A stretch of 64,000 nucleotides of DNA from Candidatus Parcubacteria bacterium. GTDB lineage: Bacteria; Patescibacteriota; Minisyncoccia; UBA6257; HR35. The notes under the pieces were generated by a model. That model searched no databases, was not told the DNA's origin, and saw nothing but the letters and a program-made list of their open reading frames with translations. Positions 31,753 through 47,724 of the stretch are shown one piece after another. Every line of letters starts with the position of its first letter. The stretch's first letter is position 1. The stretch lies in contig AP024681.1 of NCBI GenBank assembly GCA_025999335.1, positions 523,547 to 587,546 on the forward strand. The letters are read 5' to 3'. The position numbers and the translations under genes are program-made.

Positions 31753-31805
31753 TCCGGGGTAGTTCAGTGGTACCTGCCTACCGGCAGGCAGGGAACGCGC
31801 GGCTG
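31753..31805 (+). pseudogene. Degenerate 5' half of tRNA-Asn, ending inside the anticodon and carrying a 20-nt palindromic insert in the D-loop
   Basis: tccggggtagttcagtggta + [cctgcctaccggcaggcagg] + gaacgcgcggctg matches nt 1-34 of the intact tRNA-Asn at 32052 apart from the insert. Sequence then diverges (cataat...). Confidence 0.7.
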
Positions 31806-31821
31806 CATAATATAAAATAAA

Positions 31822-32061
31822 ATGAATTATTACGTGTATGTTTTGAGAAGTTTGAAAACAGGAAAACATTATATAGGTATAAGCAAAAATCCAGAGAAGA
31901 GACTAAAAGAGCACAACAAAGGGGATAGTAAATTTACGAAAGGTCATAGACCATGGGTTTTGGTTTATAAAGAGTTTGTTGGTAATAGATTAAAAGCTAG
32001 AGTAAAAGAAAAAGAATTGAAAAGATCATACACAAAACGAAAAAATTTTATTCCGGGGTAG
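31822..32061 (+). CDS. GIY-YIG nuclease-superfamily small protein, 79 aa
   Basis: MNYYVYVLRSLKTGKHYIGISKNPEKRLKEHNKG is the classic GIY-YIG motif (YVY...YIG...R..EH). The stop codon lies inside the first 10 nt of the intact tRNA-Asn. Confidence 0.7.
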   Translation: MNYYVYVLRSLKTGKHYIGISKNPEKRLKEHNKGDSKFTKGHRPWVLVYKEFVGNRLKARVKEKELKRSYTKRKNFIPG

Positions 32062-32123
32062 TTCAGTGGTAGAACGCGCGGCTGTTAACCGCGATGTCGT
32101 AGGTTCGAATCCTACCCCCGGAG
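32052..32123 (+). tRNA. tRNA-Asn(GUU), intact
   Basis: Hand-folded. Acceptor TCCGGGG/CCCCGGA. D-arm GTTC-AGTGGTA-GAAC. Anticodon stem CGCGG/CCGCG with loop CTGTTAA, giving anticodon GTT with A37. T-arm GTAGG-TTCGAAT-CCTAC. Discriminator G. Confidence 0.85.
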
Positions 32124-33710
32124 CAAAGAGGACTGATTTTCGCTTAAATTCTCAAAATCCCTATTAAAATCTTGCTTTTCTTGATTTTTAGCTGGTTCGA
32201 ATACACCCTCTTTCTCTAACTCACCAGGAAGATCCATTATTCGAACCGTAAATATAGGCTCAATCTTTACATTCAGCTTTTTATCCTTTACTATAAATTC
32301 AGAACCTATACACTTTAAAATAGTCCTTTTAGTGGCAATATCTCCGTTAAGATAAGCTTCTTTTATCTTTCCCACGATATTTACATAGTCAATAGCATAA
32401 TCAATCCATCTATCATCTTCATATTCTTGTTCTCTTAACATAGTTTCAATAGCTTGCTTTCTTTTTCTTAGCGGTTCAATATTCCTTTGAAATTCCTCCT
32501 CAGTAATCTCTCCGCTTGATTTCATATTTATTAAGTTATCAATCTGATTAGTTATAGCAGAATACATTCTTTTATAATGACCTAAATTCTTTTCTCTTTC
32601 TTCTTTTCTTTTTCTTTGTTCTTCTTTCAAAGTACTAATAGCCCAGTTATGAATAGCTTCAGGAATGCTAATATTTGATAAAACTTCTAAAATTTCATTT
32701 TCTAACTCCTCCTCTCTTATTGGTTTTTGATGGCAAATTCCAGGATAATTTTTCTTTTTAGCACATTCATAATAAACATATCTCAGAACCCTACCATTTT
32801 TGTTTCTTTTCAATTTTTCATAGCTAGTTAAAACACCACCGCATTCACCACATCTTAATAAGCCTCTAAACATATGAACGATTTTCCTCTTTTTAGGACT
32901 TCCTTTTCTATTTAAAATTTCTTGAACCAATAACCAAGTTTCTTTATCAATAACAGGCTCATAATTTCCTTTATACCAATTACCAGAACCTTTAGGATAT
33001 TCAAACTCACCATAATAATCAGGACATCTTAACATTGCATAAAATTTACTCGGAGATAATCTTTTGCCATATCTATTTGTTAATCCCCACTCATCAACAG
33101 CTATTCTATAAACTTCTTTAGGAGTGTATTGACCACTTGCTAATGTTTCAAATACTTTTCTTATAATATGAAATCTTTCTGGATCAGGAAAATAGTTATG
33201 TTCGCCTTTAGGAGAATATTTGTTATTGAGATAACCCAAAGGAGCTAATCCTGGTTTAAATCCTTTTTCAGCTTTCTTTCTCAGCCCTCTTTTAGTATTA
33301 GTAGCGAGATCTCTAATATACTGGTTAGCCATTCCAGTTTCTACAGCCCATAATAAAGCGTTATCTTCTGGCTTATAAACTCTTTCTGGTGTTCTAATTT
33401 CTTTAATTATTTCTTTTTGTAAAAGCCATTGAATTGTTCCTGAATCAATAGGGTTCCTGCTAAGTCTATCAACTTTCCAACATAAAATAGCATTAGCCTC
33501 TCCTTTTTTAATTTTTTCAATCATTAAGTTAAAAATCTCCCTTCCCGGCTCTTTAGCACTTTTAGCTTCTGTTAAAATATCAACAACTTCTAAACCCTCT
33601 TTTTCTGCTAATTTTTGTAATTCTTCAACCTGAGATTCTAAAGATAAGACCTGTCTATCTTCTGACTCTGAACTTTTTCTAGCATATATAATGTATCTAA
33701 GTTTTCCCAT
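32112..33710 (-). CDS. Large serine recombinase/integrase
   Basis: The N-terminal resolvase catalytic domain has IIYARKSSESEDRQ (catalytic Ser) and VDRLSRN. A recombinase domain and a Cys-rich zinc ribbon (CGECGG...C..C) follow. The 3' end, including the stop, overlaps the last 12 nt of tRNA-Asn. Confidence 0.8.
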   Translation of the reverse strand: MGKLRYIIYARKSSESEDRQVLSLESQVEELQKLAEKEGLEVVDILTEAKSAKEPGREIFNLMIEKIKKGEANAILCWKVDRLSRNPIDSGTIQWLLQKEIIKEIRTPERVYKPEDNALLWAVETGMANQYIRDLATNTKRGLRKKAEKGFKPGLAPLGYLNNKYSPKGEHNYFPDPERFHIIRKVFETLASGQYTPKEVYRIAVDEWGLTNRYGKRLSPSKFYAMLRCPDYYGEFEYPKGSGNWYKGNYEPVIDKETWLLVQEILNRKGSPKKRKIVHMFRGLLRCGECGGVLTSYEKLKRNKNGRVLRYVYYECAKKKNYPGICHQKPIREEELENEILEVLSNISIPEAIHNWAISTLKEEQRKRKEEREKNLGHYKRMYSAITNQIDNLINMKSSGEITEEEFQRNIEPLRKRKQAIETMLREQEYEDDRWIDYAIDYVNIVGKIKEAYLNGDIATKRTILKCIGSEFIVKDKKLNVKIEPIFTVRIMDLPGELEKEGVFEPAKNQEKQDFNRDFENLSENQSSLLRG

Positions 33711-33799
33711 TATTTATGTGAATTATAATAAATTTTTCTTAAAATCGCTAAACTTTATTAAATTAATTTCGCCCATTTTTTCTATGTTTTTTGTATATA

Positions 33800-33960
33800 C
33801 CCCCTCAACGATGTCCCGAAATTCCAGTTACTTAACCTGACCTAACCAGGGGGTTCTTATATAGGACAGGTTAGGTTGAAAAAGGGTATTTAACGATGTC
33901 GGAAAATTCCAACCTGACCTGCCTATATAAACACCCCCTTAGGTAGGTTAGGTTGACAAC
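33800..33960. repeat. Iteron and inverted-repeat cluster in the non-coding gap between integrase and primase genes. Candidate att or ori.
   Basis: aacgatgtcSgAaaattcca occurs twice (33806-33826 and 33891-33911). aacctgacct occurs twice (33834-33843 and 33911-33920). aggttaggttga occurs twice (33868-33879 and 33945-33956). Three ccccct / aggggg runs also occur. Confidence 0.6.
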
Positions 33961-33980
33961 TTTTTCACATAACTAATAGG

Positions 33981-35924
33981 TTAGAACTGAATGTCTAAAA
34001 TTGATAAACTCTCTTTACTCGATACTTCTGCATCTTCACTCTTTTCGTTTAAAAACCAACGATATGTAGCTCCCTTTTTATTTTCTTTTGGGTTTCTGCA
34101 AATTGAACCCTTATCATAAAGGCGGTCTAATGAAGCTTTTAGTTTTTTTCTTGTTATTTTGATTCCTTCATTCTCGAGTTCTTCTTTTATTGCGCTATAG
34201 ATTTCTGATGTTGTTAGCTCTTTTCCAGAATTTTCCTGTAAAAAATTAATTACAGCTTCTTCAATTAAAATGTTTTCTTCTTCAGAGATGTTAATTGATT
34301 TCAATTTCCCATTTTCGTCGAATTCATAAACAAGCTCTTTTGGTTCAATTATTCTTCCCTGCGATCTTAAAATTCTTCTTTTTTTATTATTTTCATGAAT
34401 GTTTAGGGTAATAAGAATGTCAAACATACCAGCGAGTGCGTGTGTTCCTGCAATTGACTTAATCCCTTGTTCGCTTTTGATCGTATGATGCAGTACAATT
34501 AGCGTTGTCCTTCTTTCTTGAAGAAATCTCAAAAAATTTAGCAATAAATTGCTTACTTCACTAGCAGAGGTTTCGTCTCTAATGTCATTACCAACGATAC
34601 TTCTTAGAGTATCTATAATCAAGATATCGGGGCTTAAATTTTTCACAATCTCATTAACTCCTTCAATCCCTAACGCTAATGCTGGTAGTATCAAAAGATT
34701 CTCCTTAATCTTTTCGAAATCCAAGCCTTCAAATAGACCAAACTCTTCATAATTTTTGATTCTTTTCTTCCATAAACTTTTAGATTCTTCTGAGAGATAT
34801 AGAATTTTATAATTTTCAGCCCATCCTAAACAATTTCTAAAAATAAGCTCTGTTTTTCCAGTTTTAGGATACGCAGAAAGAATATGCGTCCACCCCTTAA
34901 CAATAAACCCATTTTCTCCAATTAAGGGTATGAACTCTAGTTGATCTTCTGTTTCGCTTAAGAGATCATCGATAGTAAAGAAGCCCTTCTTTAATTTTTC
35001 GATATAGTCATAATTTAATGTTTTTAAATCACCGCCCTGTTGGTAAAATTCGGTGACATCTTTCCCGCAGGGGAGATTTATTATATAAACATCGCTCACT
35101 GAAAGGCTTAATTTGTTTATTAGATTATTCAACCAAGTTTTTCCAGTCTCATCACGGTCTGGAATAAGAAAAATTTTCTTAAACCTCCTAATTATATCAA
35201 CCCATTCATCAAGCCATTTAGTTGTTCCGCCTCCTGCGATTGTCAGGACGTTGAAACCTTCTTGATTCAGTAAAATAGCATCCAATTCTCCTTCTACCAG
35301 ATATATTTCTTCCTTTTCAAAGTCAACACAGTTAATTGGAAATAAAGTTTTCTTTGTTCCCGATCTTAACCACTTATACTTTTCCAGGTTTGGATTTTCC
35401 TTTAAGGGATCACGCCTGATTTTATAGTTTACAATTTTTCCGCTTTCGTCAAAAATTGGGATCCCAATCCAATAATTTCCTTTTTTATCTTTAAAACAAC
35501 TAAAACCAAATTTAGCAATAGTTTCATCAGTTAGTTTTCTTTTCTTTAACCAATCCTTTAGCTCTTCCGTTAAATCAATCAATTTATAAAACCCTTCACT
35601 AGCTGCCTCTTCTGTTTTTTCTTCAATATCATCAATTTCTCTTAAATAATGTTTTTTTAGATACCTAATGGCATCTTTGGTTGTTAAATTATGACAAATT
35701 TTAATGAAAGAAATAACATTTCCGCCTTTTCCGCAACCAAAGCAATACCAACTATTGGTTTTAGGATATATAGTAAATGAAGGATGGTTATCGTTATGAA
35801 AAGGACATTTTATTTGAGGTGTTCTTCTATTAGGAATTGCAATATCAGTTTCTCTTTGAATTACTTCTTTAATATCGAGATTATTTATTTTTTCAAATAT
35901 GTTATAATTATTTTGTAAAGACAT
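33981..35924 (-). CDS. Bifunctional phage/plasmid-type primase-helicase (zf-CHC2 + Toprim primase fused to a RepA/DnaB-like P-loop ATPase)
   Basis: CHC2 zinc finger (CPFHNDNHPSFTIY...WYCFGCGKGGNVISF). Toprim (LVEGELDAILL). Walker A (AYPKTGKTEL) and Walker B (ILIIDTL) motifs. Confidence 0.75.
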   Translation of the reverse strand: MSLQNNYNIFEKINNLDIKEVIQRETDIAIPNRRTPQIKCPFHNDNHPSFTIYPKTNSWYCFGCGKGGNVISFIKICHNLTTKDAIRYLKKHYLREIDDIEEKTEEAASEGFYKLIDLTEELKDWLKKRKLTDETIAKFGFSCFKDKKGNYWIGIPIFDESGKIVNYKIRRDPLKENPNLEKYKWLRSGTKKTLFPINCVDFEKEEIYLVEGELDAILLNQEGFNVLTIAGGGTTKWLDEWVDIIRRFKKIFLIPDRDETGKTWLNNLINKLSLSVSDVYIINLPCGKDVTEFYQQGGDLKTLNYDYIEKLKKGFFTIDDLLSETEDQLEFIPLIGENGFIVKGWTHILSAYPKTGKTELIFRNCLGWAENYKILYLSEESKSLWKKRIKNYEEFGLFEGLDFEKIKENLLILPALALGIEGVNEIVKNLSPDILIIDTLRSIVGNDIRDETSASEVSNLLLNFLRFLQERRTTLIVLHHTIKSEQGIKSIAGTHALAGMFDILITLNIHENNKKRRILRSQGRIIEPKELVYEFDENGKLKSINISEEENILIEEAVINFLQENSGKELTTSEIYSAIKEELENEGIKITRKKLKASLDRLYDKGSICRNPKENKKGATYRWFLNEKSEDAEVSSKESLSILDIQF

Positions 35925-35976
35925 TTTGTATCATAAAGCCTCGCTACTCTAAAAAGATAGCGGGGCTTTTTCTTTT

Positions 35977-36150
35977 TTAATTTTGACCTTTAAGATGTTT
36001 AAGTACTTCTTCAATATCAAATCTTCTAATACTTCTTTCGTAACTTCTGATTGATTTCAGAACACCCATCTTCTCCCACCTTCTTAAAGTCTGTGGATGC
36101 ACGTTTAGGATTTTTGCAAGCTCTCCAATCTTGATAAATTTTTTCTCCAT
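35977..36150 (-). CDS. MerR/excisionase-family HTH protein, 57 aa. Candidate Xis or regulator.
   Basis: The reverse complement translates to MEKKFIKIGELAKILNVHPQTLRRWEKMGVLKSIRSYERSIRRFDIEEVLKHLKGQN. The I.ELA..L.V...TLRRWE..G.L pattern is the Xis/MerR HTH_17 signature. Not in the track because it is under 60 aa. It overlaps track ORF 36026-36313 in another frame. Confidence 0.5.
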   Translation of the reverse strand: MEKKFIKIGELAKILNVHPQTLRRWEKMGVLKSIRSYERSIRRFDIEEVLKHLKGQN

Positions 36151-36515
36151 TTTTTGCTTTATTTTTTAATGATCGACCTTTAATTTTTTCAAAATTGAAA
36201 ATAACTTTATAAAGCTCCAAAATTTTTATTTTCTGTCTTAAAACTTCATCTTCTTTTAGCTTCAAGCCCGTTTCTTTGAATGCCTTTTCAAATTCTTTTA
36301 AATCTCTTTCCATTTCTCTTAAATTCTTACATTTGCTATAGGGGGAGTAAGGGAGATTTTTTTAAATATTTACTCTCACCATAGCTAAAAAATGTAGAAA
36401 AAATTAGGCAAAATAAAAAAGGAGTCTAATTAGCCTTCTTAAATTTCTAGCTCTTGACAAGGTTTAATCAAAGCAAACAAATCTTATTAGTACTGTTGTT
36501 TTTTTATTAATTTTT

Positions 36516-38159
36516 CTAAAAACTTTTAACTGCTTTTATAAAATCTCTGTAATCCTCTTTATTAACACTCCCCAATTTTAAAAGAGAACATAGCTCATTT
36601 AACGCTCGCCATGATTTTTGAGATTTTTCTAATATTTTCAGTATTATTTCCTTTAACTGAGGTAAATCATCGAGAGCATCAGCCAACATCCATAACAAAT
36701 GAATTTTTTCTCCCTCGAATGGAGTCATATTTTGATCTGCAAAAACATCTGAATAATTGCTTTCAAACTTTTCTACAAAAATAATAGCCTCTTTTATCGA
36801 CTGAAATTCTGATAAAATTTTTGATTTAAGATCTTTTAATTCTTGCCTGTTTTTATTTAAGTGCCTTTGTCTTGTTCTAATTTCCTGTTGATTTCTTGTA
36901 TGAATAGGTGGGTTAACTTTTACTATACCACTTTTTACATAGTTAATTAATTGAGATTGTTTTTTAAGTTCTTTTATTTCTTTCTTCCCATTTTTAATCA
37001 GGCTATTAAATCTCATAAACAGTCTTATAGTGTGCCTCAACTCATATTCTTTAGAATTTTTTATCTCTAAAATAGTTTTTAATCTTTTTCTGAATTCATT
37101 GTTTTCAGTTAATAGATAGCAAAGAACCCTTTTAGTATATGTTTTTTCGTCTTTAAATACTTTTTTGTTTTTTATCCGTTCCCTCATATATAGCCTCCAA
37201 TCATCAGGGTTGAACTCATCATAAAAAACATAATTTTTTAGCAAAGAACCATAAATATCAGGAATTTTGAATTTTTCAATAAAGTTTTTGGTAATTATTT
37301 TATAAGGGACAATCCTGTTTTCTTTATAAGAGACCTCTAATAAAGCTAAATAACCATAAACATCTTCCGTGTTAATTTGTTGTCCCTTAAGTATGTTGAA
37401 GTTTGTAAGATTATCAATATAAACGAAAGTTTCGCTTAATGGAATTTCTAAAATGTTTCTAATTTTCCCTGCATTCTTTAATTTCTGGTTGTTATTCAGT
37501 TCATTAATTTTCTTTTCTAATATTTCTAATGTCCAAAACCTATAATCTCTAAAAACTTTTTCTAAAGAAAAATTTTCGTCTAATTTCTTATATTTTTCTT
37601 CAATTTTCTTTCTTAAATTTAAAAAATCTTGAACATTAATTTTATATTTTTTTCGAAACTTTGCTACCTCTTTTTTGAAATTGTCTAAATTATTAAAATC
37701 CCAGTAAGATAAATATCCATCAAAATAAAGAAGTAATTTTTCCTGAATTATTTCGAATTTATCTAAAGTAGCAGCTTTTTTAAAAAGACTAACTACTTCA
37801 TTCTCATTATTTTTTAAGTAATTTCTAATCACCCCCACAGCATCTCCAATTTTTTCATCTACATATTCCGTCTCTTCTTTTTTTCTAAAAAATTTTTCTG
37901 TATGACTTAACTCCCCGCCAATTTCTTTTATTTCATAATCTAAATCGAAACCGCATTTTTCTAAGAAAAAATTGGATGTTAAATAATCGATAATGTAATC
38001 CACTTGATCTTCTCTTAACTTTATTTCCTTCAATTCTTTAGGGTAAATAGGAAAATAATAAATATCATCAGGTAGTTTTTCGAATAATCTATAACCATTT
38101 CCGCTTTTCAATTGCTCTTTAATACCATTTTTAATTTTCTCTACTAGATTTTTTATCAT
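36516..38159 (-). CDS. Hypothetical 547-aa protein of unknown function. Island cargo.
   Basis: Long uninterrupted ORF, Lys/Glu/Asn-rich. I could not recognise any Walker, nuclease, HTH or transmembrane motif. Confidence 0.4.
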   Translation of the reverse strand: MIKNLVEKIKNGIKEQLKSGNGYRLFEKLPDDIYYFPIYPKELKEIKLREDQVDYIIDYLTSNFFLEKCGFDLDYEIKEIGGELSHTEKFFRKKEETEYVDEKIGDAVGVIRNYLKNNENEVVSLFKKAATLDKFEIIQEKLLLYFDGYLSYWDFNNLDNFKKEVAKFRKKYKINVQDFLNLRKKIEEKYKKLDENFSLEKVFRDYRFWTLEILEKKINELNNNQKLKNAGKIRNILEIPLSETFVYIDNLTNFNILKGQQINTEDVYGYLALLEVSYKENRIVPYKIITKNFIEKFKIPDIYGSLLKNYVFYDEFNPDDWRLYMRERIKNKKVFKDEKTYTKRVLCYLLTENNEFRKRLKTILEIKNSKEYELRHTIRLFMRFNSLIKNGKKEIKELKKQSQLINYVKSGIVKVNPPIHTRNQQEIRTRQRHLNKNRQELKDLKSKILSEFQSIKEAIIFVEKFESNYSDVFADQNMTPFEGEKIHLLWMLADALDDLPQLKEIILKILEKSQKSWRALNELCSLLKLGSVNKEDYRDFIKAVKSF

Positions 38160-38940
38160 TTTTGCTAAAATTTTATATTTCCTTATTAAAAAGTCAACTC
38201 TTAATTAAATTTTACCTAAAAGTTATAAAGCTTAAACCTTTTTAAAAGCTTACGGGCTTAAATGTATTTTGTGAAAATTTAAAAATTCCGCAGATTTTAC
38301 AAAAATTAAAAATCTTTATTATATTCACCACGAAGTCTATTCCTTGCTTTAAAAATAACTCCCTGTACCCCTCCCCTGGCTATGTTTAAACAAGCGCTCT
38401 TTACCACTATAGTTTCACTTTTTACTTTTTAAGTCATTCCATTATCTAACAAGAAGGAGATAATTTTTAAAGCAGAAATTTTTACTATAAAACACCATAA
38501 CACCATAACACTAAATTCTACAATCTGAATATTTAAATTAAATTTCAAAAATCCTCTCAAAAAACTAAGATTCCAAGCATAATTAAACCCTAAATTCCTT
38601 AAACAAAATTCACAATTTTTGATAAAATTTAATTAATAAAGGCTGAGAACAATGGTTGATAAAAATAATAAAAAGAATGATAAAAAATTTGTAGAGTTGA
38701 TCTGGCATGGAAAATATAAAGAATTTAATTTGAAAGATAAAATTTCTATCGAGAGACCAAATCTGCCGTTCCAGTTTATAGAAACAATTAATGAACCTAT
38801 ATAAATATGGAACAGCTTAAATATTTTCTAAATTAATTAAATTATACATAGCAACAGTTAGGTTATGAACAAGTTACTAGAAATTCGCATAAATTGCCCT
38901 AAGGAATATTTAAAAATAAATTAAAAAATAATGTTAAAAA

Positions 38941-41685
38941 ATGAGAAACTCGACAAACAATTGGAAGACGGTAGTATTAAAAAAGTTTGAGGAACTAGAT
39001 TATAAGAAAGAGATTCTTACAATTTTTGATGAAAGAACCAAAAAGATAGATTTTTCAAGTTGTATTAAGCAACATCAAAAACAGAACTTCGAAGACGAAG
39101 CTTACATAAGAGCCTATCTTGTTTTGAGACTCATAAAAGAGCTTAATTATCCATGTGAAGTGATAGAGTTAGAAAAAAAATATTCCATAGGTCATCCTTC
39201 TAAAAAAGAAGCCCGTTTAGATATTCTTGTTAAGACTAAAAGAGGAAATCCATTCATGTTATTAGAGTGCAAAACCCCAGATAACTTTATCAAAGAAAAA
39301 GATGATGCTCTAGAAAATCAACTTTTTGCAATTGCTAAGCACGAAATAAGAGGCGAAATAAAACCAAAATACTTAGTCTTATATACAATAGATATTGAAA
39401 ATGGAAAAGTTTTAGATAGAGCAATTATAATAGATTTCGAACAATACTCAACTTATGAAGATTGGAAAGAAGCAGGAGAATCTTCCTTGGATGAGATACC
39501 AGCAGATTATGGTATAGCAAAAAAATATACGTATGCCAACATAGAAAGACCAAATCCAAATGGTGGTTTAAAACCCCTAAGAAAAGATTATACTCTTGCA
39601 GATTTTGAAAAGCTAAGAGTAGATCTACATAACAAATTATGGGCTGGAGGTGAGGCTGATTACAACGATATCTTCTATCATCTAATAAAGATAATGCTCG
39701 TTAAAATATATGATGAGTTATTTACGCCCGAAGGAGGAATTTATGACTTTCAAATATTTTATAAGAATGGTGAACCAGAAACCCCAGAGGAACTAGCAGA
39801 AAGATTAGAAAAGAAATACAAAATCGCTTTAAAAGAACTTTTAAACTATGATGATGAAAAAATAAAGGAAATACCTTTGATTGAGAGAGATAAATTTACT
39901 TATGAAAAGTTATTCTATGCCGTAGAGAAACTCCAAGAAATTTCTTTAACAGAAAATATTCATAGCAAAGGAGAAGATGTTTTGGGCTTATTCTTTGAAA
40001 GCATATTACAAAACGAATTTAAACAAAGTAAAGGACAGTATTTCACTCATAAGAATATTGTAAGATTTTTAATTTATGCATTAGAATTAGATAAATTAGC
40101 GATAGACAAGTTGAATCAAACATATCCACACTTTCCATACATTATAGACCCTGCTGCTGGTAGTGGCACATTTCTTGTTGAAGCAATGAAAATTATTACA
40201 AAAGAAGTGTTGAGAAATAAAGATAAATTAAAACTTACTAGATCTTTAAAAGAAAAAATAAAGGACTTAGAAGACCCTAATAGGAAACATCGTTGGGCAG
40301 AAGATTATATTTATGGAATTGAGCCGAACGCCCGTTTAGGTTTAGCAACCAAACTAAACATGATTCTGCATGGCGATGGAAACATGAATATTTTTATTGA
40401 AGATGGTCTAATGCCTTTCAAAATAAAAGATGAAGCGTTTTACACGAGAAAGTGGAAAGGGAAGGATGTTGGTTTGTTGGCTGAGGGTGAAAATACGAGT
40501 ATTTACCCAAAACCAATAAATGGACGTTTTGATGTGGTACTATCAAACCCGCCTTTCTCTATGAAAATTGAGGCGATGAAAGCTTATAGGTACATAAAAG
40601 ATACCTTTGTTTTTTACGATAAGAAAAATTCAGAAAACTTATTTATAGAAAGATGGTTCCAGTTATTAGCCCCCAAAGGAAGATTAGGTGTTGTCTTGCC
40701 AGAAAGTGTTTTTGATACTAAAGAAAACCTATATATCAGGAATTTTCTTTATAAGTATTTCAAAATAAAGGCTATCATCAGCCTGCCTAAGGAAGCTTTT
40801 GAACCTTACACATCAACGAAGGTTAGTTTGTTAATTGCAGAAAAGAAAACCGATGAAGAAATTAAAGCATGGGAGGATAAATGGAGAGAGTATGCAAACA
40901 AATACAATAAATTAAGAAATTCAGAAATAATCCGGTTTTTCATAGAGAACGATAAAATTCTTAACTCTTTCAGAACACTTTTGGACAAACATAATATTGA
41001 AATAGATTATTCAAAAGTTTTGGTTCATGACTTGTTGGATGATAATTTGAAAGGTGAAATTGAAGCAAAAATATTACAAAATGATAAAAATAAATTTAAG
41101 GATTTGGTAAAGAAAATAAAATACTTTAAAGATAAATATAAACTGGACGAGTTAGATACTGAAGAAAATAAGAAAATTCTGAAGGAATTTCTGAAACAAT
41201 TTTATCCACAAGAGCAAGAGCTTAAGAGTTTTAAAGAACTCTTAGAATATGTTTATGATGATGTTCTGGAAATAGCCACTTTGGACTATCCACAAATTGA
41301 AGGGCAAAACAATTACTGTAATAGCTGGTGGGTTTTTGGAGAGGTATCTAAGCACTTTAATTATTCGATATTCTACGCTGAAGTTGAAAACATTGGGTAT
41401 AAGAGAACAAAGAGGGGCGAACAAGACAAAGACATTCCAATAAAAGATGAAAATGGAAATATCATCGCTTTTAAAAACGATTTCTTTAAAGTTAAAGCCG
41501 AGAAAGTGAAGAGAACATATTGGGTTAAGAAAGGGGATAAAGTAGTTCAGGAAGAAAAAGAGGAAATTATCAAAACCGACATAATAATAGATACAGAAAA
41601 TCCTGAAACTGTGCTTGACCATATAAGAAGTGCAAACATTTGGTCAGAAAATTCCAATTTTAATTTTGAGGTGAAAGAAAAATGA
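38941..41685 (+). CDS. Fused restriction endonuclease / N6-adenine DNA methyltransferase (Type IIG/IIB, BcgI-A-like)
   Basis: The N-terminal HSDR_N-like PD-(D/E)xK domain has RLDILVKTKRGNPFMLLECK. The central gamma-class MTase has motif X (GQYFTHKNIV), motif I (IDPAAGSGTFLVEA) and motif IV (VLSNPPFS). The C-terminal ~350 aa is helical and of unknown role. Confidence 0.7.
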   Translation: MRNSTNNWKTVVLKKFEELDYKKEILTIFDERTKKIDFSSCIKQHQKQNFEDEAYIRAYLVLRLIKELNYPCEVIELEKKYSIGHPSKKEARLDILVKTKRGNPFMLLECKTPDNFIKEKDDALENQLFAIAKHEIRGEIKPKYLVLYTIDIENGKVLDRAIIIDFEQYSTYEDWKEAGESSLDEIPADYGIAKKYTYANIERPNPNGGLKPLRKDYTLADFEKLRVDLHNKLWAGGEADYNDIFYHLIKIMLVKIYDELFTPEGGIYDFQIFYKNGEPETPEELAERLEKKYKIALKELLNYDDEKIKEIPLIERDKFTYEKLFYAVEKLQEISLTENIHSKGEDVLGLFFESILQNEFKQSKGQYFTHKNIVRFLIYALELDKLAIDKLNQTYPHFPYIIDPAAGSGTFLVEAMKIITKEVLRNKDKLKLTRSLKEKIKDLEDPNRKHRWAEDYIYGIEPNARLGLATKLNMILHGDGNMNIFIEDGLMPFKIKDEAFYTRKWKGKDVGLLAEGENTSIYPKPINGRFDVVLSNPPFSMKIEAMKAYRYIKDTFVFYDKKNSENLFIERWFQLLAPKGRLGVVLPESVFDTKENLYIRNFLYKYFKIKAIISLPKEAFEPYTSTKVSLLIAEKKTDEEIKAWEDKWREYANKYNKLRNSEIIRFFIENDKILNSFRTLLDKHNIEIDYSKVLVHDLLDDNLKGEIEAKILQNDKNKFKDLVKKIKYFKDKYKLDELDTEENKKILKEFLKQFYPQEQELKSFKELLEYVYDDVLEIATLDYPQIEGQNNYCNSWWVFGEVSKHFNYSIFYAEVENIGYKRTKRGEQDKDIPIKDENGNIIAFKNDFFKVKAEKVKRTYWVKKGDKVVQEEKEEIIKTDIIIDTENPETVLDHIRSANIWSENSNFNFEVKEK

Positions 41686-43076
41686 AAGTACAAAATATTA
41701 CTTTACAAAATATTTCTCGGAATTACTATCTGCGTTTAGATTATAAAATTAATGCGTATCATTCTCATATTAGAAAAGATTATAAAAATGGTTGGAAAGT
41801 AAAGGACTTCCTTAAAATTATCAAGGCAAATCAAACAAAACCAGAAAACTTTGATGAAGGATATTTAATAGAATTAGAACATATTTTAAGCGGAGATGTG
41901 GAATTGAATAATGTTAAAAAAGTTAATGAGATTGGTTCAGATAAAGTTATTCTTAATCAAGCTAATTTTGCTTATTGTAAACTGGAAACAGGTAAAGGCT
42001 ATTTTATAGCTCTTCCTGAGGACATTCCTGATTATGATGGTGTATCATTAATTGTTGGGTCTACAGAGCTAGTACCATGTAGAGTAAGCATTAATAACAA
42101 AATTGCGAAATATTATCTTACACACTTTAAAGAAATTTTTAATATGTTCCTTTCTGGAAAAACGCATAGAAGGATACATGAAATAGAATTCTTAAATATA
42201 GAACTTCCAAAAATAAAAATTAGCAATACTCTATTGGATAAGATAATTTCAATTGAGAAAGAAATCTCTAAACTTAAAACTCAAATCAAGGAACCTAAAA
42301 TTATTGTAGATGAAGTTTTCAGCAAATACTTTAAACTTGATCTGAAACAATATTCAAATTTAGAAAAGAAACATATATTTGGAGAAGATTTGTTTAACTT
42401 ATCTAAATCTGCACAACTCAGGAGTTCTCTAAAGTTTCATCATCCAAAATTTGATTTTGTTTTGAAAAAAATAAAAGAGTTCAAAACTGTAAAACTGAAA
42501 CAATTACTGAAAGAACCTGTAAGAAGAGGCGTTCAACCAGAATATGAAGAAGAAGGGGGAATCCTCGTAATAAAAACTATTAATGTAAATAAAGAAGGAT
42601 ACATTGATTTAACCGAAACCGAATTTGTTAGTGATGAGTTTTATAACAAAGTAAAAAAGAAGGCAGGAATTCAACAAGGAGACATTCTTATAACATCTAC
42701 AGGCGAAGGACGGGGGAAGGTAAGCTTATATGACTTAGATGAACCCGCAATTATAGATACTCACATATCAATAGTCAGGTGCAAAGAAGATGTGAATAAA
42801 AAATATTTAACCTACTTTTTGCTATCAAGTATGGGAGAGAACCAATTAAGTATTTTAGAGCAAGCCATTAAAGGAACCCCAGAAATTTATCCACGAGAAA
42901 TAGAAAAACTTATTGTAATCTATCCTCCCTCTGAAATTCAGAACAAAATAGTTGAAGAAATAGAGACAAAACTTAACGAACAAAGAAAAATTACCAGGCA
43001 AATAGAGAAACTAAAACAAGAAATAGATAAACTGATAGAAAAAGCAATTTTGGATAACAAACTAAAAAATGATTAA
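41682..43076 (+). CDS. Restriction-modification specificity (HsdS-like) subunit with two target-recognition domains
   Basis: The ATGA start/stop overlap with the upstream R-M gene suggests translational coupling. It is 464 aa with two variable halves separated and followed by conserved coiled-coil spacers (…ISKLKTQIKEP… and …ITRQIEKLKQEIDKLIEKAI…), as in Methylase_S. Confidence 0.6.
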   Translation: MKVQNITLQNISRNYYLRLDYKINAYHSHIRKDYKNGWKVKDFLKIIKANQTKPENFDEGYLIELEHILSGDVELNNVKKVNEIGSDKVILNQANFAYCKLETGKGYFIALPEDIPDYDGVSLIVGSTELVPCRVSINNKIAKYYLTHFKEIFNMFLSGKTHRRIHEIEFLNIELPKIKISNTLLDKIISIEKEISKLKTQIKEPKIIVDEVFSKYFKLDLKQYSNLEKKHIFGEDLFNLSKSAQLRSSLKFHHPKFDFVLKKIKEFKTVKLKQLLKEPVRRGVQPEYEEEGGILVIKTINVNKEGYIDLTETEFVSDEFYNKVKKKAGIQQGDILITSTGEGRGKVSLYDLDEPAIIDTHISIVRCKEDVNKKYLTYFLLSSMGENQLSILEQAIKGTPEIYPREIEKLIVIYPPSEIQNKIVEEIETKLNEQRKITRQIEKLKQEIDKLIEKAILDNKLKND

Positions 43077-43350
43077 GACTCTTGGGCGCGTGCGGGACTT
43101 TTTATTTAATTTTGTGAAGTTTATTTTTACAGTTCGCTAATAAACGAATATCTGATTCAAGCTTTTAGTCTTAGGTAAAATTATTCTAGAAATTTTAAAC
43201 ATTAATAATATTATTAAGTTGAAAGTAAAGAAGATGTCGAGAAGTCTAAAAGAAGGTTTTAATATCGCAAAACAACCCCAGCTGTATTCCTTATCTTCAA
43301 TTTCACTTTCCATTCTGTTTGTTTTATAATATTTTCAAGAGTTCGAATAA

Positions 43351-45144
43351 AATTTTCCCTGCGGAGGAGAAAGATTAGAAAAAGGAAAAACATACATCAT
43401 TAGATGGGAGTCCAATGGTGTTTCACATGTTTATCTTAAATTAAGAAAAGGTAATGATGCATACCCAGGACAGGAAGGAATGATATCCGGTATTATTTTT
43501 AATACAGGATTTTATCAGTGGACAGTTCCCAAAACATTACCATATGGAAATGATTACAAGATTAGGGTGATTGATGCTGATTTAATATCTTCAACAAATG
43601 TAGACACAGGACCTGTTATTGATGATAGCGATGCTTCATTTAGTATTGTCTCTTCAACAACTACTCCTTCAATCAGAGTTATTTCACCTAATGGAGGAGA
43701 AAATTGGACTATCGATTCTTATCAAAAAATAAAATGGAGCGCACTCAATGATAAAACAGTTAGTATTTATTTAAAAAGGTATATTTCTTGTCTTTATGCT
43801 CAGCCTAAGTGTCGATTAACAGAACCAATGCCTATAATTATTGCTGAGAATATTCCAAATATAGGTGAATATGATTGGCAAGTTGGGAATATTGTTAAAA
43901 AATTTGAATATCAAACTTTATCTTCAGGTAGTTATATTATTGAGATTAGAGGAAATAATTCAGGAGAAGTAGATGTTAGTGATAAACCGTTGCAAATTGT
44001 TTATACAAATAGTCCTTTAAATCCTTCAAAACAAGCTTGTATTCAGGCTACAACTTTTGCTTATGATCCTAAAAATCCATCAAAATGTCAAGAATTTTCA
44101 ACACCTTGCGATGTTCCCGAGGGTTGGCTAACAACAGATAAATGCCAACAAAAAAATACTTTCTTAGAACCTATGGAGGTGCCAGTATTGGTTATAAAAT
44201 ATTATCCTACTCAAAATGGACGAACTATTGATACTTCCATTACTTTGGATATTCCTCAAGGAAGAACTATCAAAGAACAAGATGAAATCACCAATAGTTT
44301 GAATAAAAAATTGATAAAAGCCCTAACTGAAGGAAGTAAATATCATGGTTATAAAAATTCTAATGCTTTACCTTTTTTAACTTATAAAGTGATTGCAGAA
44401 AAGACATTTTTGAAAAGATTACCTTTAACTGATAACAAAATAATAGATTACTTTAGTATTATGAAAGATCTTAATGTTTGTGATTATGTTGATAATAAAG
44501 GGGTTAAAGAAATTTGGATTTGGGCTTATGCTAGCAATTACGAAATAATGTGGGAATCTAATTTTTCATCTATTTATGGTGATATAAGTAATAGCAATCG
44601 AGACCCTAATGATTTGCCTGTTTGTAAAAAATCGTATACTGTTTACACTTATAATTATGGCAGAGAATATGCTACGGCTTTGGAGAATCATGGTCATCAA
44701 ATAGAGCATATCTTAAATTGGATTGATGGTCGAGATATAACACCAAATGATCAATGGGATAAGCTTTTATTCTGGGGTAAATTTGTTGGGCGAAATTTTG
44801 AAAATAAAATACTGCCTCCTGTTTCTGCTTGTGGTTGGATTCATTCTCCGCCAAATACAGAAAAAGATTATCATTGGTATGAGAAAACCCAAGTATTTTC
44901 AGACTGTGAGGATTGGAATCCAAATAGAACAGGCAAGAAAAAACCTGTAAACTGCGTTACCTGGACTGGTAATTCTGAATGTAAAGATGATGGCGGAGGA
45001 GAAATGTTTAAAATTTGGTGGATGCAAAATATTCCTGGCTATAAAAATGAGCTTTACTATAATAATATCAAACTAAGAAATTGGTGGGAATTTATTGGCG
45101 ATTTTGATGAAGCTTTGAAAATAGGGAAAAGTTTGACTTACTGA
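43351..45144 (+). CDS. Secreted Cys-rich beta-sandwich protein. Apparently 5'-truncated; the first ATG is at 43480.
   Basis: The reading frame is open from 43351 with no start codon. The upstream in-frame sequence …KTYIIRWESNGVSHVYLKLRKGNDAYPGQEGMISGIIFNTGFYQWTVPKTLPYGNDYKIRV is one coherent Ig-like 'Y.W.VP...G.DYKIRV' module, so coding sequence precedes the first Met. No signal peptide is present. A second Ig-like module follows, then a Cys-rich C-terminal region. Confidence 0.4.
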   Translation, partial: NFPCGGERLEKGKTYIIRWESNGVSHVYLKLRKGNDAYPGQEGMISGIIFNTGFYQWTVPKTLPYGNDYKIRVIDADLISSTNVDTGPVIDDSDASFSIVSSTTTPSIRVISPNGGENWTIDSYQKIKWSALNDKTVSIYLKRYISCLYAQPKCRLTEPMPIIIAENIPNIGEYDWQVGNIVKKFEYQTLSSGSYIIEIRGNNSGEVDVSDKPLQIVYTNSPLNPSKQACIQATTFAYDPKNPSKCQEFSTPCDVPEGWLTTDKCQQKNTFLEPMEVPVLVIKYYPTQNGRTIDTSITLDIPQGRTIKEQDEITNSLNKKLIKALTEGSKYHGYKNSNALPFLTYKVIAEKTFLKRLPLTDNKIIDYFSIMKDLNVCDYVDNKGVKEIWIWAYASNYEIMWESNFSSIYGDISNSNRDPNDLPVCKKSYTVYTYNYGREYATALENHGHQIEHILNWIDGRDITPNDQWDKLLFWGKFVGRNFENKILPPVSACGWIHSPPNTEKDYHWYEKTQVFSDCEDWNPNRTGKKKPVNCVTWTGNSECKDDGGGEMFKIWWMQNIPGYKNELYYNNIKLRNWWEFIGDFDEALKIGKSLTY

Positions 45145-45572
45145 ATAAATAATTTTTTTATTTTCAGTTAGATATTTTTTAATTAAATTTTGTTTCTAAA
45201 TTAGTTTTTAATTCATTAAGTAATCTTTTAGTTTCATCAAAAAATTTTCGTTGTTATTATAATTTTCAGTATAGAAAACAATTTTTAATTGATTTTGAGC
45301 AATTAGTTTTATAGTAAAAATTTCTTGAAGTTGAGAAGATATATTCAAATCTTTAGCTATCTTATTGTAAATATTTTCGATTTCATAAACAGATAATTTT
45401 TCAACTTCACCGCTAATATTAAAAAATGTTTTTTCTTTGAATTTCAGAAAAATTAAGTTTAATTTTTTTGTTTGTTTAATTTCGATTTCTTGAGATATTT
45501 GGCGTTTTTGTTTGTTTTTTTAAATAATTTTTCAAAAAATTTCATTTTTCATTTTTTATTTTAATAAGACTT

Positions 45573-46844
45573 TTATAATTTTAAAATAGTTTTTTTGAAA
45601 TTTGAAAACCTGTTTTCTTTAATTGACTTTCTAATTTCTTTAAATAAATTCAAAATCCAGAACACATTATGTTCAGTTAAAAGTATAATGCCGTAAATTT
45701 CTTTTTCGCGAAGCAGATGACAAATATATGCTCGTGAATATTTTCTACAAATATTACATTTGCATTTGGGATCAATAGGTTTTTTATCTGTTAAATATTT
45801 ACTTGCTTTTAAATTAATTCTTCCATTAAAACTAAATCCTGTTCCATGCCTTGCCCATCTGGTTGGAATTACACAATCAAATAAATCAATTCCTTGTTCA
45901 ATTGAATTCAAAATATCATCAATTTCTCCAATTCCCAAAAGATGTCGTGGTTTTTTATAATCAAGATAAGGCAAAGCCCAACTTAAAACTTTAATAATAT
46001 CTTTTTTACTTTTACCCAAACTTCCACCGATACCAAAACCAAAAAAGGGAAGTGAATTAATAAATTGAGCCGATTCTTTTCTTAAATCTTCATATTCTCC
46101 TCCTTGAACAATTCCAAACAAAACTTGATTTTTGGTTTTACCAAATTCATCCAAGCATTTAATTGCCCATTTATGAGTTCTTTTTAATGCTTCTTTTGTG
46201 TATTTATAATCAGACAAAGGGGAAGTGCATTCATCAAAAGCAAAAATAATATCTGCGCCCAAAATTTTTTGAACTTTAATTGAAATTTTTGGAGATAAAA
46301 ATAATTTTTGTCCATTGTAAGGATCAATAAATTCAACACCATCATCATAAATTCTAACCAGATTCTTTTTTAATGCAGATAAACGCGGATTTTTATCACG
46401 CGGATTTACGCCGATATTATTTTCTGTGTATATCCCGTTTTTTTTATTTTCCGCGTAGTTCCGCGTTAGTTCTGCAGAGTTTTTCATTTCCTCAGGAAAA
46501 ATATCTGCCACTTTTCCAACCCCATGTTCCATTCCGAAACCCAAACTAAAAACCTGAAATCCTCCACTATCAGTCATTAAAGGATAATTAATATTTAAAA
46601 ATTTATGCAAACTACCAAATTTTTTAATAATTTTATATTTTTCCTGACGAAAAAAATGAAAAGTATTAATCATAAAAATTTCAGCACCAAATTTTTTAGC
46701 TTGTTCAAAACTTAAACCTCGAATACCACCTTTTGTTGCAACAATTGCTAAATTAGGAGTTTTAATTAAACCATGAGGTGTTTTAAAAATTCCTAATCTT
46801 GCTTTTGTTGTTTTGTCTTTCTTTAATATTTTAAATTTAAACAT
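45573..46844 (-). CDS. tgt: tRNA-guanine transglycosylase (queuine tRNA-ribosyltransferase)
   Basis: LMTDSGGFQ catalytic motif. Zn site CKCNICRKYSRAYICHL (CxCxxC...H). A low-complexity repeat insertion lies around 46380-46470. Confidence 0.8.
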   Translation of the reverse strand: MFKFKILKKDKTTKARLGIFKTPHGLIKTPNLAIVATKGGIRGLSFEQAKKFGAEIFMINTFHFFRQEKYKIIKKFGSLHKFLNINYPLMTDSGGFQVFSLGFGMEHGVGKVADIFPEEMKNSAELTRNYAENKKNGIYTENNIGVNPRDKNPRLSALKKNLVRIYDDGVEFIDPYNGQKLFLSPKISIKVQKILGADIIFAFDECTSPLSDYKYTKEALKRTHKWAIKCLDEFGKTKNQVLFGIVQGGEYEDLRKESAQFINSLPFFGFGIGGSLGKSKKDIIKVLSWALPYLDYKKPRHLLGIGEIDDILNSIEQGIDLFDCVIPTRWARHGTGFSFNGRINLKASKYLTDKKPIDPKCKCNICRKYSRAYICHLLREKEIYGIILLTEHNVFWILNLFKEIRKSIKENRFSNFKKTILKL

Positions 46845-46845
46845 T

Positions 46846-47724
46846 TTAGTAAAATATTGTTTTAATTTTTGGATAAGGAATCTTAAATTTAATTTTATGA
46901 GCCAAATTCCAAATTAAATTATCAACTAAATAAGACGGCAAAGCTAATTTTTTTGATAAATTTTCTCCTAAAATAATACTTGCCCACCTTAATTCATTTT
47001 CCAAGATTGAATGTGTTTTGATATTTTTTTTATTTTTTATTTTATTTAAAATGTTTTTTGGCAAAGAAATTAGGTTAAAGTTTATAAACAATTGTGGTAA
47101 TTTATAATCAACAAAAACAGTTAATTCTTCTAACTCAGTTTTGAATTTTTTATCTAGTTTATTACCAATAATAAATTCAAAATATAAAAGTTGGTTTGGT
47201 TTTAAAAAATAAAAATTTCGATAATAATCTTTAAATTTTTTCAAATAAAAAAGATTTAAACAAAATTTTAATGGATTTTTGTTTTCTTCAAAGTAATTTA
47301 AAAAATCACCATCATAATTTTTATTGAGCCAAGCTAAAGCTTGTTTGAAAATTTTATATCTTAAATTAGCTAAATTATAATTTTCTTTTGGTGAAATTAA
47401 TTTTCTAAAAATATCAAAATCTATTTTATTAAAATTAATATTGAATAAATTTTTTGTTTTTAACAAAAGTCCATAGAATCCTTTTTCGTTTTTAAATTGC
47501 CAATTTTTAGGAAATTCCCATAATCTAAAATCTAAAACTCTAAGAAAAAATAAGAAATTACTTAATTTTTTAAGCTCAATATTTTTTAAATATTTTTTAA
47601 ATTTATCAAAATCTTGTTTTTCTTTTTTTATTAACTTAAAAAAGTCTGTATTAATTTCATTTGTTTCTATAATCCTAAATTGATAATTTTTATTTTTGTC
47701 TAATATAAAATTTTTCAAACTCAT
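46846..47724 (-). CDS. Hypothetical protein, 292 aa, immediately downstream of tgt
   Basis: ORF only. Lys/Asn/Phe-rich. No recognisable motif. Confidence 0.3.
   Translation of the reverse strand: MSLKNFILDKNKNYQFRIIETNEINTDFFKLIKKEKQDFDKFKKYLKNIELKKLSNFLFFLRVLDFRLWEFPKNWQFKNEKGFYGLLLKTKNLFNINFNKIDFDIFRKLISPKENYNLANLRYKIFKQALAWLNKNYDGDFLNYFEENKNPLKFCLNLFYLKKFKDYYRNFYFLKPNQLLYFEFIIGNKLDKKFKTELEELTVFVDYKLPQLFINFNLISLPKNILNKIKNKKNIKTHSILENELRWASIILGENLSKKLALPSYLVDNLIWNLAHKIKFKIPYPKIKTIFY

Follow-up and report, generated by a model that had tools for sequence, protein, structure and literature searches.

BsaXI, a Type IIB restriction-modification (RM) system of Geobacillus stearothermophilus, is the nearest characterised relative of the locus described here and is known from the structures PDB 8W0P, 8W2P and 8W2Q (Shen et al., NAR 2025; PMC11997821). 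The enzyme is an (RM)2S heterotrimer of RM and specificity (S) subunits, which recognises AC N5 CTCC, cuts on both sides of this site and is blocked by hemimethylation (PMC11997821, PMC9159934). A two-gene cassette in the genome of a Candidatus Parcubacteria bacterium (assembly GCA_025999335.1, contig AP024681.1) very probably encodes an intact RM system of this same Type IIB family. It lies in a stretch of 64,000 nucleotides (positions 523,547 to 587,546 of the contig, forward strand), referred to below as the window, whose own numbering is used throughout.

The nuclease residues E73, D90, E105 and K107 of BsaXI were shown to be essential by mutagenesis (PMC11997821). In its RM subunit, several helices placed ahead of the last strand of the methyltransferase (MTase) sheet make up a knob, which together with that strand forms a hydrophobic cradle for a target recognition domain (TRD) of the S subunit (PMC11997821). 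A further element, the paddle, is made of two long antiparallel helices and participates in DNA binding and cleavage; its residues D816 and E823 are needed for cleavage, which the D816A and E823A substitutions abolish (PMC11997821). According to the same study, homologues longer than 850 aa carry the paddle, while those shorter than 800 aa mostly lack it, and the key paddle residues vary within the family (PMC11997821). The BcgI-type enzymes, composed of RM and S subunits, are Type IIB enzymes that cut both sides of a bipartite site, and their RM subunit ends in a single M.EcoKI-like helix joining the bundle formed by the conserved regions CR1 and CR2 (PMC11997821).

The two subunits and their relatives

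The first gene of the cassette encodes a 914-aa RM protein with Pfam matches to HSDR_N_2 (aa 53-120, E 1.3e-8), N6_Mtase (aa 345-663, E 7e-29) and Eco57I (E 1e-11). Its best match among PDB sequences is RM.BsaXI (8w0p_A, 916 aa; E 1.9e-179, covering aa 6-669 and 740-829). The same chain was the best PDB match in a Foldseek search with an AlphaFold2 (AF2) model of the protein (E 9e-62, template modelling (TM) score 0.69, 855 columns, 40% identity), with Type I HsdM chains trailing at E 1e-12. The second gene encodes a 464-aa S protein, which is closest in sequence to S.BsaXI (E 2.3e-10) and in predicted structure to the corresponding chain 8w0p_C (E 5.5e-23, TM score 0.65). As sequence matches, these E-values are far beyond chance.

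The catalytic residues of the RM protein were compared in two family alignments, one of 55 close and distant homologues and the other of 46 representatives of 50%-identity clusters. The nuclease motif consists of D94 followed by E109-C-K111 within 'FMLLECK', and E78, D94, E109 and K111 align exactly to the four essential residues of BsaXI. D94 and K111 never vary in either alignment; for E78 and E109 this holds in one alignment each, with the residue found in at least 90% of the sequences of the other. The MTase domain contains motif X 'GQYFTH' (365-370), motif I 'DPAAGSGTF' (403-411) and motif IV 'NPPF' (536-539), an X-I-IV order that places it in the gamma class. Motif I has an invariant D403 and G407, with S408 and G409 found in at least 90% of both alignments; motif IV has an invariant N536, P537 and P538, with F539 in at least 90% of both. 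Full-length orthologues with 66-89% identity are common. Comparison with the orthologue on a metagenomic contig binned to Desulfofervidaceae (L002) gave a ratio of nonsynonymous to synonymous substitution rates (dN/dS) of 0.059 for the whole RM gene, 0.105 for the nuclease domain and 0.096 for the knob, and the ratio does not exceed 0.105 in any domain where it could be calculated. The RM gene is under strong purifying selection.

The S protein has no Pfam match above threshold and is recognised by models of Type I specificity subunits from PADLOC (E down to 1e-21) and NCBIfam (PRK09737, E 4e-12). Its AF2 model (predicted local distance difference test score, pLDDT, 84.1) shows two TRDs alternating with two conserved regions, TRD1 (~37-176), CR1 (~182-265), TRD2 (~269-413) and CR2 (~417-462). 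In an alignment of 26 S homologues, CR1, CR2 and a short N-terminal segment are conserved, while the TRDs are hypervariable, with several unrelated alleles at both TRD positions that recombine freely among homologues. The TRD1 allele of the window is common to three of these sequences (P0122-P0124) and its TRD2 allele to five others (P0126-P0130). Because both TRDs are only weakly similar to those of BsaXI, the target is almost certainly not AC N5 CTCC and is expected to be a different asymmetric bipartite sequence.

Several observations support the RM and S proteins as partners. The RM stop and S start codons overlap by 4 nt (ATGA), and inspection of the sequence revealed a Shine-Dalgarno sequence, GAGGTGA, 9 nt upstream of the S start codon. 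An identical 4-nt overlap is found in the Desulfofervidaceae cassette, and in six cases an RM and an S homologue lie on contigs of equal length. One RM relative of 1395 aa (P0010, 74% identical) bears an extra S-type domain, Pfam PF01420, and its size and this domain indicate a probable full RM-S fusion. Many of the 50%-cluster representatives similarly extend ~215-270 or ~500 aa past the conserved C-terminal helix, as expected if they carried one or two fused TRDs. Both genes recur in an independent Logan assembly (L001), in which an identical 4.7-kb segment contains both open reading frames (ORFs) full-length and identical to those of the window, and a 100% identical S protein is annotated in a Candidatus Parcubacteria metagenome-assembled genome (MAG; KatS3mg097).

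The likeness to BsaXI extends to the overall design of the system. The RM subunits are of nearly equal length (914 versus 916 aa), as are the separate S subunits (464 versus 476 aa), and the domain order is the same, with a PD-(D/E)xK nuclease, a helical connector, a gamma-class N6-adenine MTase and a knob before the last strand of the sheet. The catalytic tetrad, a C-terminal 'TxLD' helix and the TRD1-CR1-TRD2-CR2 layout of S are also shared. In contrast, the knob of the window protein is ~55 aa longer, a beta-hairpin in a 45-aa segment stands where BsaXI has an antiparallel helical paddle of ~100 aa, the S subunits are only ~19% identical, and the host is a bacterium of the Candidate Phyla Radiation (CPR) rather than a Firmicute.

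Other RM systems resemble the locus in part. BcgI, BveI, Hso63250II and HpyUM also combine a nuclease-MTase fusion with a separate S subunit and lack an ATPase; however, the window RM has a BsaXI-type knob instead of the M.EcoKI-like tail of the BcgI type, and its model ends in knob, hairpin and a short helix (891-898). The Type I HsdM2-HsdS complexes of EcoKI and EcoR124I share a gamma-class HsdM-like MTase fold and a two-TRD HsdS-like subunit, and appear as second-tier matches in both sequence and fold. In the system described here, the MTase instead carries the nuclease at its N-terminus and no HsdR translocase-nuclease was found, and cleavage at fixed positions and independent of ATP would be expected. 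Type IIG and IIL enzymes and Type IIB enzymes fused into one RMS chain (MmeI, BpuSI, AloI-like) share the fusion of PD-(D/E)xK nuclease and gamma-class MTase, whereas the S subunit of the window is a separate, translationally coupled polypeptide with two TRDs.

Profile names also pointed to other defence systems. The top NCBIfam names are those of the MADS proteins MAD2 for RM (E 3e-43) and MAD5 for S (E 3e-8), but membership was rejected since the scores of 148 and 33 bits compare with curated cut-offs of 720 and 400 and no other MADS genes were present among the scanned neighbours, which comprise an integrase, a primase-helicase and ORFs without a known function; the similarity appears to reflect shared HsdM/HsdS-like domains only. 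BREX/PglX membership, suggested by NCBIfam and PADLOC names, was ruled out by the score cut-offs and by the lack of partner genes, and a Type ISP or Type I system was ruled out because no ATPase was found among the ORFs scanned.

An initial reading of the DNA made without database searches (the original prediction) had already proposed much of this organisation. It had recognised an HSDR_N-type nuclease motif (D...LLECK), MTase motifs X, I and IV (NPPF) and a separate two-TRD HsdS-like subunit encoded by a second ORF with an ATGA overlap, at coordinates that agree with the ORF list and the sequence; the Pfam matches to HSDR_N_2 and N6_Mtase, the Type I S profiles and the S model bear this out. 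Its statement that no HsdR helicase is present also holds, as no superfamily 2 (SF2, HsdR-type) helicase domain was detected in any window ORF of at least 500 aa or in the scanned neighbours of the cassette. It had further described a BcgI/Type IIB-like architecture: a Type IIB-like RM fusion with a two-TRD S subunit and no translocase is indeed present, whereas the nearest characterised relative is BsaXI and not BcgI.

The predicted C-terminal knob and beta-hairpin

The original prediction had left a 350-aa C-terminal extension of the RM protein without an assigned role. The extension exists, with a length of ~280 aa (636-914), and a role has been assigned to the homologous region of BsaXI, so that the 2025 structures (Shen et al. 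2025) would largely explain it. In the AF2 model of the RM protein, built from the 55-sequence alignment (pLDDT 85.8, predicted TM score 0.76), the C-terminal part runs from the knob helices (638-779) through a short sheet and a long beta-hairpin to the final helix. The knob helices lie between strand 628-635 and the region of WWVFGEV and strand 811-814, and the region aligns with the knob of BsaXI. By analogy, the enlarged knob would serve as the cradle in which a TRD of the S subunit docks. Measured between anchor residues conserved family-wide, the knob segment has 162 aa in the window protein; BsaXI-like representatives and the ~790-aa class have 83-107 aa, and several other clades 160-180 aa.

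The hairpin has the sequence KVKAEKVKRTYWVKK-GD-KVVQEEKEEIIKTDIII and is modelled with a pLDDT of ~84-96 except at its tip. Measured in the same way, the segment at this site is 45 aa long in the window protein, compared with a family baseline of 21 aa ('NDLYxxDxxGxIxIDxxNPKT'), 33-43 aa in a few clades, and a coiled coil of ~100 aa in the BsaXI-like representatives P0181, P0184, P0188 and P0198. The occurrence at one site of a helical paddle in BsaXI and of an extended beta-ribbon in the window clade marks it as a hot spot for protrusions. The rule that homologues above 850 aa have a paddle fails for the window clade, whose extra length is made up by the knob (+55 aa) and two beta-hairpin extensions. 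The hairpin is kept across the RM orthologues of 66-89% identity and is under strong purifying selection (dN/dS 0.03 in the comparison with the Desulfofervidaceae orthologue). By analogy with the paddle, the hairpin may contact DNA or position the nuclease near the cleavage site. The window clade could represent a structurally distinct subtype of BsaXI-like Type IIB enzymes, in which a rigid, charged, two-stranded beta-ribbon replaces the alpha-helical paddle at the cleavage site, a suggestion that is put forward tentatively and considered less likely than not.

On the opposite strand, an ORF of 126 aa (41242-41622, minus strand) lies within the RM gene; the encoded sequence is very hydrophobic and of low complexity. 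It overlaps the strongly constrained region encoding the RM C-terminus and is most likely spurious.

Predicted mode of action and competing explanations

A mode of action can be proposed on the basis of features that are directly supported: the gene structure, the domain homology, the conserved catalytic residues, the predicted folds, the purifying selection and the mobility of the cassette described below. For the stoichiometry, the double-sided cleavage, the target sequence and the function of the hairpin, the proposal leans on the analogy with BsaXI. By this homology, an (RM)2S heterotrimer is expected, in which two copies of the 914-aa RM subunit would dock on a single S subunit and each would sit on one TRD through the cradle built from its knob and last MTase beta-strand. 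The target would be asymmetric and bipartite, with each of the two different TRDs reading one half and the antiparallel CR1 and CR2 helices setting the spacing between the half-sites. For N6 methylation with S-adenosylmethionine, one adenine in each strand would be flipped out, each into the NPPF pocket of one RM copy. On unmethylated, foreign DNA, the Mg2+-dependent PD-(D/E)xK domains (E78, D94, E109, K111) would instead make double-strand cuts at fixed distances to either side of the site and so release a short fragment, while hemimethylated host DNA would be protected. Neither ATP nor a translocase would be involved. The enlarged knob would be accompanied by a charged hairpin of ~33 residues at the topological position of the BsaXI paddle, where it would take over the role of the paddle near the cleavage site.

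Several points weigh against an intact system working as BsaXI does. The AF2 model of RM contains no helical paddle, with the beta-hairpin at its site, and the cleavage competence and cut geometry of BsaXI are therefore not simply transferable. For BsaXI itself, three hypotheses have been proposed for the way in which the two double-strand breaks are made (PMC11997821). The RM start codon has no obvious Shine-Dalgarno sequence, and scans of 38100-43600 for promoters and terminators gave counts equal to the shuffled expectation, with nothing above background.

The missing paddle also underlies the best surviving alternative, that of a Type IIG-like enzyme that cuts on one side only and has its S subunit separate, or of an enzyme with altered cut distances or stoichiometry. 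The predicted hairpin in place of the helices, the loss of BsaXI cleavage in the D816A and E823A mutants and the asymmetric or imprecise cutting by engineered BsaXI S variants (PMC9159934) would all fit with it. However, two distinct TRDs on a pseudo-symmetric S fold imply two bound RM subunits and hence a nuclease on each side. In addition, since most of the homologues below 800 aa have no paddle and the paddle residues are not conserved in the family (PMC11997821), the paddle is not a general requirement, and a one-sided cutter is considered improbable.

Less probable again is that the locus encodes only a Type I-like M2S methyltransferase, orphan or epigenetic, with a vestigial N-terminal nuclease. 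This would agree with the public annotation of homologues as 'type I restriction enzyme M protein' or 'HsdM family', and insufficient methylation makes BsaXI RM and S toxic to E. coli when they are produced together (PMC9159934), which could favour loss of the nuclease in some lineages. Against it, all four catalytic residues are intact and conserved family-wide, and the dN/dS of the nuclease domain shows that it too is under purifying selection. Finally, an inactive, decaying remnant carried passively on a genomic island is the least probable of the three, since both ORFs are full-length and identical in an independent assembly, full-length orthologues of 66-89% identity are common and purifying selection is strong, even though the cassette adjoins an integrase/primase island and a possible truncated gene fragment (38652-38804), and the S gene on the Desulfofervidaceae contig appears truncated or frameshifted (a 281-aa ORF with homology running past it). 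The intact BsaXI-family system preferred here is an anti-phage system of an ordinary and known kind, set apart only by its modified C-terminal appendage, and the remaining point of interest is the beta-hairpin at the paddle site together with the larger knob of the window clade.

Mobility, genomic neighbourhood and family

The limits of the cassette emerge from a blastn comparison of the window with related loci. On four contigs (L002, L003, L004 and L006) the homology (85-87% nt) begins at 38898-38904; on L002 it ends at 43102, and the flanks are unrelated. Because the homology is confined to 38898-43102 amid unrelated flanks, RM and S move together as a 4.2-kb unit, independently of the island that adjoins them in the window. 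DNA of 85-87% identity was found in contigs binned to Desulfofervidaceae, Aquificaceae, Parcubacteria, Persephonella, Nitrospirae and an Acidilobaceae archaeon; these cassette copies (L002-L007) are in MAGs that all come from hot springs or vents and are assigned to one archaeon and five bacterial lineages, a taxonomic spread to be read with the caveat that short contigs can be mis-binned. The flanking genes differ from contig to contig. They encode a toxin-antitoxin pair and a staphylococcal-type nuclease (SNase) on L002, an undecaprenyl-diphosphatase (BacA), a DeoC-family aldolase and an enoyl-ACP reductase on L003, and a two-component system on L006. The GC content of the cassette is 30-32% compared with 40-50% for the flanks on L002, L003, L004 and L006 (~8-20 points lower), while that of the window cassette equals the 29% of its host. 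This points to either a recent horizontal spread from a low-GC donor or binning errors.

On the Desulfofervidaceae contig, the S gene (L002, 4281-5668) is represented by the 281-aa ORF, whose TRD1 is not homologous to that of the window and in which the homology to TRD2 and CR2 continues past the stop codon. This S gene is frameshifted or decaying, or affected by an assembly error.

Table 1. Coordinates in the window of the cassette, its genes and domains, and the features to its left
Feature	Position	Strand	Details
tRNA-Asn	32052-32124	+	shares its last 13 bases with the 3' end of the recombinase ORF
Large serine recombinase	32112-33710	-	532 aa
Primase-helicase	33981-35924	-	647 aa
MerR/excisionase-like helix-turn-helix protein	35977-36150	-	57 aa
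547-aa ORF	left of cassette	-	no match in Pfam, NCBIfam, PADLOC or PHROGs
Two-gene RM cassette (mobile unit)	38898-43102	+	~43 bp leader, RM, S, ~26 bp GC-rich/T-run trailer
RM subunit gene	38941-41685	+	ORF, 914 aa; nuclease, connector, N6-adenine MTase, knob, beta-hairpin
PD-(D/E)xK endonuclease domain, N-terminal	38941-39510	+	aa 1-190; catalytic E78, D94, E109, K111; HSDR_N_2
Multi-helical connector	39511-39975	+	aa ~191-345; AF2 helices 219-331; aligns with BsaXI connector residues 193-348
Gamma-class N6-adenine MTase domain	39976-40845	+	aa 346-635; N6_Mtase, Eco57I
Enlarged knob	40846-41331	+	aa 636-797; AF2 helices 638-779; insertion before last MTase-sheet strand
Long K/E-rich beta-hairpin	41476-41610	+	aa 846-890; AF2 strands 850-864 and 867-882
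Translational-coupling junction	41669-41685	+	GGTGA Shine-Dalgarno core (GAGGTGA from 41667), then ATGA stop/start overlap
S (specificity) subunit gene	41682-43076	+	ORF, 464 aa

To the left of the cassette, the region 32052-38159 looks like a small integrative element at the tRNA-Asn gene (Table 1). A search of 31800-45600 for direct and inverted repeats that could mark att sites of the island or the cassette returned only AT-rich matches at chance level. Between this element and the RM gene, 136 bp upstream of the latter, lies a 50-aa ORF (38652-38804, plus strand; MVDKNNKKNDKKFVELIWHGKYKEFNLKDKISIERPNLPFQFIETINEPI), which was also gene-called in the Logan contig and is outside the cassette homology. 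As a possible controller protein or MTase remnant, it gave no match in Pfam, NCBIfam or a plasmid tblastn search. Its W-x-G-K...P-x-Q-x-I-E pattern presumably resembles the N-terminus of Type III-like DNA methyltransferases, and the ORF may be a remnant of an earlier system.

Downstream of the cassette, a 554-aa ORF (43480-45144, plus strand) matches only a Kre9/KNH-like Ig domain, and its N-terminus is abrupt and without an obvious signal peptide. The insertion may have disrupted a surface-protein gene and left this ORF as its truncated end. The Logan contig ends at window position 43343, just upstream of this ORF. To the right of the island, a tRNA-guanine transglycosylase gene (423 aa) lies beside a queuosine-salvage (Q_salvage) gene (45573-47724, minus strand); these belong to normal CPR core metabolism and mark the return to the chromosomal backbone.

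At the level of the family, a profile-free search of 1.84 billion representatives returned 4118 matches at E <= 1e-3 and 289 at E <= 1e-30. The window clade corresponds to one 50%-identity cluster and one fragment of 500 aa, found only in metagenomes of thermophiles. In public databases, homologues are labelled "type I restriction enzyme M protein", "HsdM family" or "N-6 DNA methylase", and members of the BsaXI family are systematically under-annotated. This locus and hundreds of homologues should be named as Type IIB RM and S subunits of the BsaXI family.

The locus leaves the current understanding of RM systems unchanged. A Type IIB enzyme derived from a thermophile and equipped with a new pair of TRDs could provide a new specificity for uses of the 2b-RAD type. 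Its natural design, with a beta-hairpin and no paddle, is a comparator for the function of the BsaXI paddle and, if the window clade is indeed a distinct subtype, comparison with BsaXI could resolve how Type IIB enzymes place their double-strand breaks, a question left open by the BsaXI study. The locus also adds a case of a CPR (Parcubacteria) genome whose RM defence cassette is apparently intact and has passed between thermophiles that are only distantly related. On the tentative reading of a distinct subtype, the cassette would in addition exemplify the recent exchange of an RM system among thermophiles of very distant lineages, with CPR bacteria and possibly archaea among them.

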